DNA of 64,000 nt from Pseudomonadota bacterium (GTDB taxonomy: Bacteria; Bdellovibrionota_C; UBA2361; SZUA-149; DAOLCO01): assembly GCA_027487795.1 (NCBI GenBank), contig JAIYCX010000028.1:108028-172027 (forward strand), in the 5' to 3' direction. Shown piece after piece: positions 55,654 to 58,600 of the stretch (its first letter is position 1; each line of letters starts with the position of its first letter). The position numbers and the translations under genes are program-made. A model generated the notes under the pieces. The model was not told the origin of the DNA and searched no databases. It saw only the letters and a list, made by a program, of their open reading frames with translations.

Positions 55654-58600
55654 CTAACCACCAAAATAATCTATCATTTTTTCGCGAACTAATTGTACTT
55701 GTGTTCTAATTATACCAGTAAATGCTTGATCTGCATTTATTTTACCTTGAACAAAATCATCATAAAATCCAAATATGTAACCAAATCTTTTCACTATATG
55801 CTCTTGATTATTTCGAGAATCAGCAAGAAACTGCTCTCTAAAAACTACTCCATCAAAATCAATAGTACTAATGGTGCTGTCCCTATTTATCAATACATTA
55901 CCACTATTATTAAAGTCAGGATGAAACAGTCCATTTTGAATCTGCTTTGCTTCAAGCGCATCAAGACTTTGATGTGTAATAATTGGATCATAATTTGCTG
56001 CCGCCTTATCAAGTGTTTTGGCTCCCCTTGTATTTCCTAAATGTTCTATTAGCATTCCGTAACCATGTAGTCTCTGATCTTCTGGATCCAGCAAAGTGAC
56101 GCACTTCTTTTCAGCATCTATATCAGGAGCAAAATTCCCTAACCTCCTTTTAACCTCGAGATGATTAGCTATAACAGCATCGTTGAAATCTGCACTTTCT
56201 CTTGATAATTTATCTTTTGGTATTCTAATTACCTTTGATCGATTATCTGGATTTATAAATACATAGTTACTTGCTCCCACATCCGATCCAGGATTTAAAT
56301 GATCAGGACCATTAATTATAAGTGGGTTGTTACGATTACATGAAGGCTCAGTCTTCGAAGCTTTTATGATTCCTTCTTTTACTAGTTGTTCATATGTTTT
56401 TGGATAGCGAGATTTATGTTTTTCTATAAGTTCGCAAGTATTAATTGGAGCCTTAATTTTAATTGGTAAATTTGCTAAGTCTCGATATCTATCAGGATTC
56501 CAACCTAGTGCTTTAGCAATAGTCTCTTGCGATAAAACAAGATCGATCCCGTCAATATGTTCCGCCAGTTCATTATATTTTTCTACTTGGGTGGTAGCTT
56601 TAGCACTGAATATATACCCGCCTAGCTCTGCTAATCTTATTATCAAATTTTCTTCTTGACTTAGAAACAAAGGAACTGAAGCATTTGGGTCTCCATATCC
56701 TTCTCTCATTGCTGTTAATACTTCTTTTACGATTAATCTATCATTAGCATCACCTATATTTGCGTCGTATAAGAGATTGTCTATCTTAGCACCGTCTACA
56801 TATCTTGCTTCAGTTGCTGGTACTTTCATAGTATCAACGTATTTAATCTTGTCTTTATTTGGCTCAATAAATGTTTCTTCAATTTTAGGATTACCTAACT
56901 TTCCATAGTCGCCGTCTCCTAACTCTTTATTTACAGTTTGTGTCATGAACATTTTGCTTCCAGCCTTATCGATATGATCTTCTTGTACAGCTAGAGAAAG
57001 TATTTTTTCCTCTGTCTTCATAGACTTTCTCGTTTGTGGATCAAAATATGTAGCTAGATGCATAAAGATATCAGTATCAAAAATCGCCGCATTTGCGGCT
57101 GGCAATTCCGCCTTTGGACATGTATTTTTATTCCATATTCTGGAGGCTAAATAATCAGAAAAGGAAGGTAATGGATCTGCATTAATTGATAACCTTGCTC
57201 TCCTAGACAATTGATTTGATTTATCATTAAAGGCTAATTGATTTATTAGGCATACGCCTGCTTGCGTTGATGGCGATACAGTTTCTATCACCTCTTTCAA
57301 TTCTCTAATTGTACCTATTAATGCTCTTCGAGCTCCATCAGCCGTTCTTGGGAGTAATTTAAGCTCTTTAACCTTCTGTGCTACCTTCGTCATCTTAGCA
57401 GCACCCCTTACGCCCGCAGTTGCTGCCCCTACAAATCCCGCTTCCAAACTATCCAAAAATAAAAATGTAGCAGTTACTCTGCGATCAGCAGGCTGTCCGT
57501 AAAAATCTTTGCCTTCATGAAATGTGAGCATCCCGTCTGCTATCGAAAGAGCGGTCCCAAATACTGGTATCATCTCCATTGCCTTCCAAGTTTCATGATT
57601 CTCATAATAACTTTGAGCAATCTTTGATTGTATCCATGGAAACATTGTGTAACCAGTATAAGTATCCATACCTAACTGTTTCCAAGGAATTTTTTGTTTT
57701 AAAATATGAGCTGCACTATTATTACATGCGACGGAAGGAGTTGTTTTTGATAAAAGTAAGTTCTTTGACTTTGTTAGTATATCACCAGAAGTGGTAAGAC
57801 TAGGTACCATTAAAAACTGCTCTAACATCAAAGGTTCTGAGATCATTGCTAAAAGGCCAAGTTGATCAAGAGTGGCACCACGTAAACCCCCTTGCGAGCT
57901 ATCAATGCTTTTTAAAAACGCTAAAATATTGTATTTAATAACTGTGACATATTCTCTAGGTATTGTCGTCCCTGTAGGGGCATATGGAGGCCAAATATTA
58001 TTTTGAAGTCCCGCATACCAAATAGACTTTCTTAAATACTCATCTCTGGTTGGTGCCGGACTTCCACCTATACCAATAGTATTATTATATTTCCATGAAA
58101 TGTACGCATTGGCTTTATCTTCTGCTACAAATGCAAAATATGCTGAAAGTCCATTGAAAAAGTAGTCTCCTGGAATTCTAAGATTCATGGCATTGAAAAT
58201 AGCCAATGTATAATCGACTACATCATCATATAATTCTTTTTGAGCACCAGTAAGTTTAGCTTCTTGTATTTCGCTAACTTGTTGTCTAGTAATATTAAAA
58301 TAAGGCTTATAAATTCCATACCAATTAGGAAATTCCGTAGGATAGGAACTATTATAAACAGGGGGTTCGTTCGGTGATTGTGTTTCAGAACTATGATTCC
58401 AAGATTCAAGAGTTTCCTGACATTGTTCTTGCCAAAAATTCTGATCACCTAGTGGTGGTTCTTCTATACTCTGTATATGAACTTGAAATCTCTTAGTTTG
58501 ACCTCCATAAGAGGCATCAATTCTTAATACTTCACTAGTTGGACTTGCAGATTTATCCAAAGACCAGGCCATAGATCCTTTGCCATCGCCATTAAAAGAG

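Follow-up and report, generated by a model that had tools for sequence, protein, structure and literature searches.

A probably Sec-exported modular protein from a Bdellovibrionota_C genome, with a putative divergent kinase-like domain at its C-terminus

We analysed a stretch of 64,000 nucleotides (hereafter the window, whose numbering is used throughout) of the contig JAIYCX010000028.1 (positions 108,028 to 172,027, forward strand; GenBank assembly GCA_027487795.1), from a Pseudomonadota bacterium which GTDB places in Bdellovibrionota_C (UBA2361; SZUA-149; DAOLCO01). It contains a gene for a multi-domain protein of 1047 residues, whose relatives share a conserved module and end in different domains. 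A previous reading made from the DNA letters alone (the sequence-only reading) had proposed that the interval 55654-56400, which corresponds to the final 248 codons of this open reading frame (ORF), codes for the C-terminal protein-kinase-like (PKL) fold of a secreted protein. We propose that the protein is a modular effector or toxin exported by Sec, which carries a divergent minimal kinase-like domain as its cargo; we give this whole picture a probability of about 0.55. The gene and its parts are as follows.

55654 to 58797, minus strand: the whole gene, coding for the multi-domain exported protein (1047 residues), from the ORF listing and its translation; the stop codon is at 55654-55656.
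58801 to 58808, minus strand: Shine-Dalgarno-like GAGGGTGG, of the GAGG type, 4-11 nucleotides before the ATG, read from the upstream sequence.
58741 to 58797, minus strand: Sec-type signal peptide, residues 1-19, MRRIRFLLVMFLFQYDVEA, recognised by inspection from its hydropathy and n/h/c layout.
58465 to 58710, minus strand: N-terminal beta-rich region, residues ~30-111, possibly immunoglobulin-like, seen in an alignment and common to the relatives P0005 and P0010.
57298 to 58446, minus strand: all-alpha module that defines the family, residues ~118-500, from phmmer, the family alignment and AlphaFold2 (AF2).
56353 to 57120, minus strand: middle domain, residues 560-815, from alignments and AF2; it is the terminal domain of the five closest homologues.
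55657 to 56349, minus strand: candidate kinase-like domain, residues 817-1047, a sequence orphan that starts beyond the ends of the homologues and matches PKL profiles only.

The N-terminus, MRRIRFLLVMFLFQYDVEA followed by QN, has by inspection the features of a substrate of signal peptidase I: a basic n-region (MRRIR), a hydrophobic h-region (FLLVMFLF, in a core of 9-10 residues with Kyte-Doolittle values above 2 and a peak of 2.6 in a 9-residue window) and a segment QYDVEA which precedes Q and ends in a cleavage motif of the small-x-small type (VEA). The homologues likewise begin with signal peptides or lipoboxes. The signal peptide announced by the sequence-only reading therefore stands, and the protein is very probably exported, as judged from its sequence and those of its relatives. 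The rest of the protein has no further hydrophobic segment whose 19-residue Kyte-Doolittle mean exceeds 1.5, and on this basis we rejected the idea that the Ala/Gly-rich stretch 440-470 spans a membrane or forms a pore.

An exhaustive phmmer search retrieves 15 relatives (E from 9e-48 to 4e-4), which align to residues 109-590 and none of which aligns to the C-terminus. All 15 are metagenomic, and the sole name on record for them is 'hypothetical protein'. The sequence of the target protein itself is recorded, in identical form, only once, in an NCBI assembly, and the full-length protein retrieves nothing but itself from a word-indexed set of 5.8e9 proteins. The genome is contained in the sequencing run SRR16126830. 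Residues 1-815 match no family of Pfam, NCBIfam or PHROGs; this includes the N-terminal beta-rich region, where AF2 places strands at 41-48, 53-57, 89-97 and 100-111 with low to moderate confidence. The all-alpha module is most conserved at residues 351-441 (KTTPSxxCNN..IPWxxLGM..PW..IPVFG..D..LTxYEGxD..G...R), where P354, G376, P411, G414 and G429 are invariant in the family alignment, and AF2 models residues ~120-450 as helices only, with a predicted local distance difference test (pLDDT) of 70-90.

The closest relatives (P0004, P0005, P0006, P0008 and P0010) also share the middle domain of about 250 residues (560-815 in the target), which has E625, G682, D686 and R698 as invariant residues in the alignments and for which AF2 predicts alternating strands and helices at 710-807 (pLDDT 60-90). 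This domain has no match in Pfam, NCBIfam or the PDB. A PIN-like nuclease, which the arrangement of D-T-N, E, G-D and T/S-x-D/E positions had suggested by eye, was rejected, since neither the Pfam, NCBIfam and PDB profile searches nor the fold searches gave it any support. The middle domain closes with 'SNLP...LPxNC', and the five closest homologues end opposite residues ~805-815 of the target; only the target extends past ~815, with the 231-residue kinase-like domain. By our own estimate, at 35% GC, an open frame of 231 codons past the usual end of the family is expected by chance with a frequency of about 1e-7. The C-terminal ~230 residues form a discrete domain.

In the other members, what follows the conserved module is of various kinds. 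The AvrB_AvrC domain (PF05394) is found above the gathering score in P0011 (6e-19), P0012 (6e-17), P0017 (6e-12) and P0014 (9e-7), and just under the threshold in P0016 (19.2 vs 23.2 bits, E=8e-4). Further family loci (the L numbers) were located with a hand-made degenerate DNA pattern. One of them, L004 (positions 6331-7998 of the locus, in a metagenome-assembled genome (MAG) from GTDB), codes for a protein with a YwqJ-like deaminase tail (CAE...PCxxC, E=9e-4). The members P0007 and P0009 and those of the loci L005-L008, L010 and L011 are lipoproteins with a terminal ParB-like domain of the 'DGNHR' type. The contigs of L004-L008, L010 and L011 come from GTDB and JGI. The MAGs that contain L007 and L008 bear the labels Pseudobacteriovorax antillogorgiicola and Oligoflexales, respectively, both of the phylum Bdellovibrionota; the family appears to be rare, to be known from metagenomes only and to come from Oligoflexia-type (Bdellovibrionota) MAGs.

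A conserved N-terminal region combined with variable, toxin-type C-terminal domains is the organisation of polymorphic toxins, and the catalogue of warheads for these systems includes ParB domains of the 'DGHHR' type, YwqJ deaminases, Doc/Fic domains and a peptide kinase (PMC3482391). AvrB is an effector enzyme of Pseudomonas syringae that has the Fido fold (PMC10866546); the presence of AvrB-type domains in relatives therefore ties the family to effector-type biology. Since the same module precedes different enzyme domains, it has the behaviour of a shared chassis for export or delivery, onto which various warheads are fitted.

In the target, the cargo would be a kinase. The segments of the C-terminal domain that suggest this are the following.

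56257 to 56289, minus strand: GSDVGASNYVF, residues 837-847, candidate Gly-rich nucleotide-binding loop and strand, from the sequence, with NYVFI as a strand in a low-confidence model.
56215 to 56232, minus strand: VIRIPK, residues 856-861, candidate beta3 strand with Lys861 as candidate ATP anchor, from position and spacing.
56038 to 56055, minus strand: MLIEHL, residues 915-920 (MLIEHLG, 915-921), hinge-like, from a pairwise phmmer alignment with WaaY.
55897 to 55923, minus strand: HPDFNNSGN, residues 959-967, candidate catalytic loop (Asp961, Asn967), inside the stretch matched by PKL profiles.
55849 to 55863, minus strand: IDFDG, residues 979-983, equivalent of the DFG motif with Asp980 as candidate metal binder, from the WaaY alignment and the profile matches.

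The candidate catalytic set appears to be complete: Lys861, Glu881, Asp961, Asn967 and Asp980 are plausible occupants of the canonical positions. Glu881, 20 residues past Lys861, would be the Glu of helix alphaC; the low-confidence model has a strand at VIRIPK, then a helix at 869-887. GSDVGASNYVF resembles the 'GxxNxVF' loop of the enzymes of the aminoglycoside phosphotransferase (APH) and choline kinase type. The segment STI-D980-F-D-G, 19 residues past D961, aligns with IID177LSG of Escherichia coli WaaY and provides the Asp of a DFG-type motif; in PKL proteins this metal-binding Asp follows a hydrophobic strand and lies about 17-25 residues past the catalytic one, as it does here. The segments 'VIRIPK', hinge-like and 'IDFDG' are thus present in the order and with the spacing that the sequence-only reading had claimed (residues 856-861, 915-921 and 979-983). 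On the contrary, its literal HxDxxxxN motif does not hold: in the loop H959-P-D961-F-N-N-S-G-N967 the Asn is at +6 from the Asp instead of +5, so that the loop is one residue longer. N963 and N964 are also present; the pairwise alignments with WaaY and UbiB of E. coli (taken from NC_000913) pair the Asn of those families with N967 and reveal a one-residue insertion in the target.

The profile searches point to the same part of the protein. With the full-length target, NCBIfam gives UbiB (E=0.027) and Kdo kinase (0.092), both on residues 941-989, and, elsewhere in the protein, an unrelated weak match to nfo (0.078, residues 467-517). With the 248-residue tail, the values become 0.0047 for UbiB and 0.014 for Kdo kinase, and the sole Pfam match is ABC1 (0.11). 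With a 90-residue core (921-1010), they become 7.3e-4 for UbiB and 2.4e-3 for Kdo kinase, to which are added CotS (0.074) and CotI (0.18), and ABC1, again the sole Pfam match, reaches E=0.016. In these two independent libraries, every profile that matches residues 941-989 is that of a PKL family, and all of them align the same stretch.

We shuffled the 90-residue core 100 times with eight residues held fixed (H959, D961, N967 and I979-G983): UbiB, CotS and CotI were matched in 0/100 of these motif-preserving shuffles, and Kdo kinase in 1/100 at E<=1. The matches are lost although the motif is kept, and therefore the residues that flank the motif contribute to the PKL match. A permissive pattern, in which HxD is followed after 3-5 residues by N and further on by a DFG-like motif, is found in 1.0% of the shuffles of the target protein, and its only occurrence among all the six-frame ORFs of the window is in the tail of the target.

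WaaY/WaaP, the Kdo kinase KdkA, UbiB/ABC1 and CotS/CotI are the sole families whose profiles touch the core of the tail; the nearest profiles belong to kinases that act on small molecules, lipids or glycans and not to protein kinases. The domain resembles WaaY of E. coli by its size (231 vs 232 residues) and by the spacing between its candidate Lys and its candidate catalytic Asp, which is 100 residues in both (K861 to D961 in the target, K60 to D160 in WaaY); the second Asp follows 19 residues later in the target (D980) and 17 residues later in WaaY (D177). In both proteins the order is a hinge-like segment of the form 'hhIEhh', then the catalytic loop, an 'NhhI' strand and a metal-binding 'IDhxG' motif, and MLIEHL pairs with IIEYI of WaaY in the pairwise phmmer alignment, which is not significant by itself. 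Unlike WaaY and UbiB, the tail has an additional residue between the catalytic Asp and the Asn, an N-lobe that profiles do not recognise and scores that are 10-30 times lower than the family cut-offs. Besides, the enzymes of the WaaY, KdkA and UbiB type are cytoplasmic or membrane-associated and have housekeeping functions, whereas the tail is the end of an exported protein.

The CotH-like relatives suggested by the sequence-only reading were not recovered: neither the domain nor any of its fragments matches the Pkinase, PK_Tyr_Ser-Thr or CotH profiles at E<=10, and for this reason we rejected the membership of the tail in the CotH-like or Hanks-type families. The window itself provides a positive control for these searches, at 1366-2646 on the plus strand, which codes for a Hanks-type Ser/Thr kinase with a C-terminal hydrophobic tail (Pkinase, E=1.4e-52).

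What remains of the kinase-like fold proposed initially is that the segment from the catalytic loop to the DFG-like motif resembles PKL proteins beyond what is expected from chance or from the bare motif; the fold itself is not confirmed and the N-lobe has no profile support. From the sequence comparisons above, the C-terminal domain is probably a true PKL domain.

Several observations weigh against our reading, and the first of them concern the tail. All the scores are far below the curated cut-offs (14.8 vs 22.9 bits for ABC1, 18.2 vs 487.6 for UbiB, 16.9 vs 142 for Kdo kinase and 12 vs 172.7 for CotS); the matched stretch is just ~45 residues long and contains the motifs on which the sequence-only reading had selected; the N-lobe fragments 817-940 match no profile; the catalytic loop has its extra, non-canonical residue. 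AF2 does not fold the tail: the mean pLDDT is 36.8 when the tail is submitted alone as a single sequence, and residues 823-995 are below 50 in the full-length model computed with a 16-sequence family alignment. Last, residues 817-1047 have no homologue in 1.84 billion representative proteins (exhaustive phmmer).

These same observations are what one would expect of an orphan domain with another fold, whose likeness to the HxD...N...DFG-like arrangement is convergent or coincidental: all the profile matches are sub-threshold and confined to one short stretch, the N-terminal half of the tail matches nothing, the strict HxDxxxxN spacing is broken, no fold is predicted, and the core motif occurs in ~1% of shuffles and was picked by a reader who scanned a window of 64 kb. 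We consider this explanation somewhat unlikely. The core stretch matches PKL families and nothing else in two independent libraries, 99 of the 100 motif-preserving shuffles lose the matches, which shows that the flanking residues fit too, and the size of the domain and its Lys-Asp-Asp spacing are those of WaaY, a real minimal kinase.

Since the pLDDT of the tail is below 50, the fold searches made with it are uninformative. They returned the APH-type kinases 6ef6 and 6sui and the ClyA-type toxins 6w1w (MakB) and 2nrj (Hbl-B), with E ~4-8 and probabilities of 0.01-0.02, and we did not count these entries as evidence. In the low-confidence model of the tail (pLDDT <50) the elements come in the order strand NYVFI, strand KVIRI, helix 869-887, strand NVLI, strand STIDF, then helices; this order would fit the topology of a kinase, and we give it no weight as evidence. 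Searches of PDB sequences with the full protein or with the domain returned no kinase. The word-indexed set returned nothing for the tail alone and nothing for the alignment of the family module; since it thereby missed the tail's own entry and existing members of the family, its negative results have to be read with care. No paralogue of the tail was found in the six-frame ORFs of the window or among the family members, and no homologue was found in viral contigs or, by tblastn, in plasmids.

It may also be that the tail has a kinase-like fold and is not a conventional phosphotransferase toxin, but a pseudokinase, a binding module or an enzyme with another chemistry (AMPylation or glutamylation). 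The chemistry of UbiB/ABC1 is unconventional, and SelO, which AMPylates, and SidJ, which glutamylates, are examples of kinase-fold enzymes that catalyse other reactions. UbiB/ABC1 profiles are the closest to the tail, whose catalytic loop is atypical by its one extra residue and whose Gly-rich loop is non-canonical. Conversely, five canonical positions are plausibly filled (K861, E881, D961, N967 and D980), which is more typical of active enzymes than of pseudokinases, and we regard this possibility as very improbable. An active kinase, used as cargo, remains the reading that we prefer.

The target gene has the following neighbours.

58860 to 64000, minus strand: a large Cys-, Ser- and Pro-rich partner gene, 62 nucleotides upstream of the target, whose frame is open to the end of the window.
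55327 to 55653, minus strand: a decayed second copy of this upstream gene (blastn), in the 327-bp spacer after the target.
52702 to 55326, minus strand: an 874-residue secreted protein, downstream of the spacer and co-directional with the target; its signal peptide, MRVIRYFILFLLL..., is very similar to that of the target.
42145 to 52470, plus strand: a giant convergent gene (3441 residues), which has a homologue next to another copy of the family gene, in L002.

The upstream partner consists of Cys-rich modules, repeated modules of ~150 residues and long Ser/Pro-rich tracts, and matches no family. Its ORF runs on beyond 63416, so that the listed ORF of 1518 residues is partial. Each of the five loci of the closest subfamily (the window, L002, L003, L012 and L013) has a large homologous Cys-rich gene directly upstream of the family gene, and both are on one strand. 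The window copy matches those of L013 (E=6e-65), L002 (1e-51) and L003 (5e-31), and the fragment in L012 is linked through L013 and L002; overall, the homologies to the window copy or of the copies to one another range from E 6e-65 to 1e-4. The ParB-type members have another gene neighbourhood, in which this partner is missing.

In the spacer after the target, 55327-55443 matches 58864-58979 (81% identity by blastn, stop codon included) and 55434-55581 matches 59924-60070 (93%). This debris of the upstream gene suggests that there were two ancestral tandem cassettes, each made of a Cys-rich gene and an effector gene. There is also a direct repeat of 31 nucleotides (29/31 identical), one copy of which is at 55613-55643, 10 nucleotides beyond the stop of the target, and the other at 56519-56549, in codons G750-I760 of the target. 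Between them lie the end of the middle domain and the entire kinase-like domain, which hints that the 3' extension came by recombination; the repeat may be a scar of this event.

The N-terminal ~500 residues and the C-terminal end of the giant 3441-residue protein are homologous to the product (2539 residues) of the convergent gene of L002 (BLASTP, E=4e-46), and the protein has no match in Pfam, NCBIfam or PHROGs. The stretch that codes for it is unusually AT-rich, with a GC content of 0.28-0.31. Residues 448-546 of the 874-residue protein match weakly the NCBIfam family of MakB, a subunit of an alpha-pore-forming cytotoxin (E=0.0013). The idea that this protein is a diverged member of the family was rejected (BLASTP E>=0.16, hhalign probability 0.5%).

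The neighbourhood adds to the points that speak against our reading. None of the six loci (the window, L002, L003, L012, L013 and L014) has an immunity gene adjacent to the family gene, or a small co-directional gene that could be a candidate; in L002, L003, L012, L013 and L014 the next gene after the family gene is convergent, and in the window the target is followed by the debris and then by the 874-residue protein. We identified no secretion-system gene and no translocation domain. The all-alpha module matches nothing in Pfam or NCBIfam, nor any sequence or fold (Foldseek) of the PDB, and the role of delivery chassis is one that we infer for it from architecture only. Finally, an exported kinase would have no ATP unless it is inside a cell.

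One may therefore consider that the family is not made of toxins or effectors, and that the protein belongs, with its Cys-rich partner and the giant protein, to an envelope, surface or extracellular complex with a housekeeping or adhesion function; the variable C-termini would then be accessory, and the tail a recent and possibly functionless product of recombination. The missing immunity genes fit with this proposal, as do the lack of any known trafficking or translocation domain, the neighbours, which are large, repetitive proteins of the surface type, and the direct repeat and the remnants of a pseudogene that flank the gene on its 3' side, which are signs of recent rearrangement. We find it quite improbable, since AvrB-type Fido, YwqJ-type deaminase and ParB-type domains typify toxins and effectors and not structural surface proteins, and since the 231-codon extension is intact, with a GC content (0.345) similar to that of the rest of the gene (0.354-0.384).

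If the protein is indeed an exported effector or toxin, its relation to the described systems has to be considered. Like polymorphic toxin systems, the family has a conserved N-terminal part and variable enzymatic C-termini, and the warheads common to both are the ParB-type DG[HN]HR, YwqJ-type deaminase and Fido domains; the rare 'Tox-Peptide kinase' warhead is a precedent for a kinase used in this way (PMC3482391). Unlike these systems, the target family lacks an adjacent immunity gene in the six loci. It also lacks a trafficking domain of the type V, VI or VII secretion systems or of the Photorhabdus virulence cassettes (PVC), RHS or filamentous repeats, and a releasing peptidase, the only export signals being a Sec signal peptide or a lipobox. 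None of the pre-toxin or trafficking domains described so far is matched by its N-terminal module, and no cassettes coding for alternative C-termini were seen downstream.

The kinase fold is used outside the cytoplasm of the producer, as we propose for the tail, by the effector kinases (OspG/NleH, YpkA, the LegK family and HopBF1) and by the secreted CotH. OspG and NleH are minimal kinase domains; the effector kinases depend on signals of type III or type IV secretion systems, and CotH acts in the spore coat. The tail differs from all of these in that we detected no sequence or profile similarity to Pkinase or CotH, and in that the target has a Sec signal peptide and a large chassis. As for the AvrB/AvrC effectors of the Fido type (PF05394; PMC10866546), their domain occupies in five relatives the position that is held in the target by its own C-terminal domains. 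The target itself has no AvrB domain, and AvrB is delivered by a type III secretion system, unlike the proteins of the family, which carry Sec signals. The target would work like a polymorphic or otherwise modular secreted toxin whose warhead is of the kinase type. Because two features that define classical polymorphic toxin systems are missing, the immunity gene next door and a known trafficking domain, we did not file the target as a polymorphic toxin system, and because it is below every curated kinase threshold, we did not file it as a member of a kinase family.

The mechanism that we propose is the following. The protein, built in the order signal peptide, beta-rich N-terminus, all-alpha module (~330-380 residues), middle domain and appended domain of 231 residues, would be exported by Sec. 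Probably together with the Cys-rich partner encoded upstream, it would reach a target cell, which may be a prey or a host. The tail, which may be a divergent minimal member of the PKL superfamily with a size and a layout like those of WaaY, Kdo kinase or RIO-type enzymes, would then find itself in a compartment that contains ATP, and transfer a phosphate from ATP to a protein, a lipid or a sugar. We favour an action on another cell, prey or host, because there is no immunity gene and because the relatives have AvrB-like, deaminase and ParB-like warheads.

A broader proposal is that the family represents a new, modular system of toxins or effectors that Oligoflexia-type bacteria export through Sec, with an all-alpha chassis that has no known fold relative, a Cys-rich partner, a giant convergent protein in two loci, swappable warheads (AvrB-type Fido, deaminase, ParB-like) that come without immunity genes, and, in the target, a new and very divergent lineage of minimal kinase-like enzymes captured as a second warhead. 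Since the warheads have no immunity genes, they would be aimed at prey or hosts and not at kin. We hold this proposal as a tentative one, which for the moment falls short of being probable. What seems new is the family and its chassis; the claim of a secreted kinase is drawn from matches that stay below the thresholds.

We also note a few features of the rest of the window, which is a low-GC (~33%) segment of a bacterial chromosome, where tRNA and Rfam scans gave no matches. Its housekeeping genes include those for apolipoprotein N-acyltransferase, FtsX, an S41 protease, the E2 component of a 2-oxoacid dehydrogenase, a LipB-LipA fusion and a glycogen-branching enzyme. The fusion is encoded directly downstream of the E2 gene by an ORF of 546 residues (26091-27731, minus strand), in which an octanoyl/lipoyl transferase domain (LplA-B_cat) is joined to lipoyl synthase (Radical_SAM, LIAS_N). 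At 2652-4793, on the plus strand, a protein of 713 residues, probably a secreted hydrolase, has at its N-terminus a protease domain of the trypsin family (S1, E=7e-61), and its long C-terminal part matches no family.

If the tail is active, it would represent a very divergent lineage of minimal kinases, to which none of ~15 billion public proteins is related in sequence. The export of a kinase as cargo would also be unusual, kinase warheads being a minor class among polymorphic toxins. Whatever the answer about the kinase, this family swaps its warheads as polymorphic toxins do, and nothing known matches the chassis that carries them. The family sits in a poorly studied phylum of predatory or host-associated bacteria, and its AvrB-type domains occur there, outside plant pathogens. 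With a single chassis, its four or five warheads and a single partner gene, it offers a concrete handle on how Bdellovibrionota-type bacteria attack cells.

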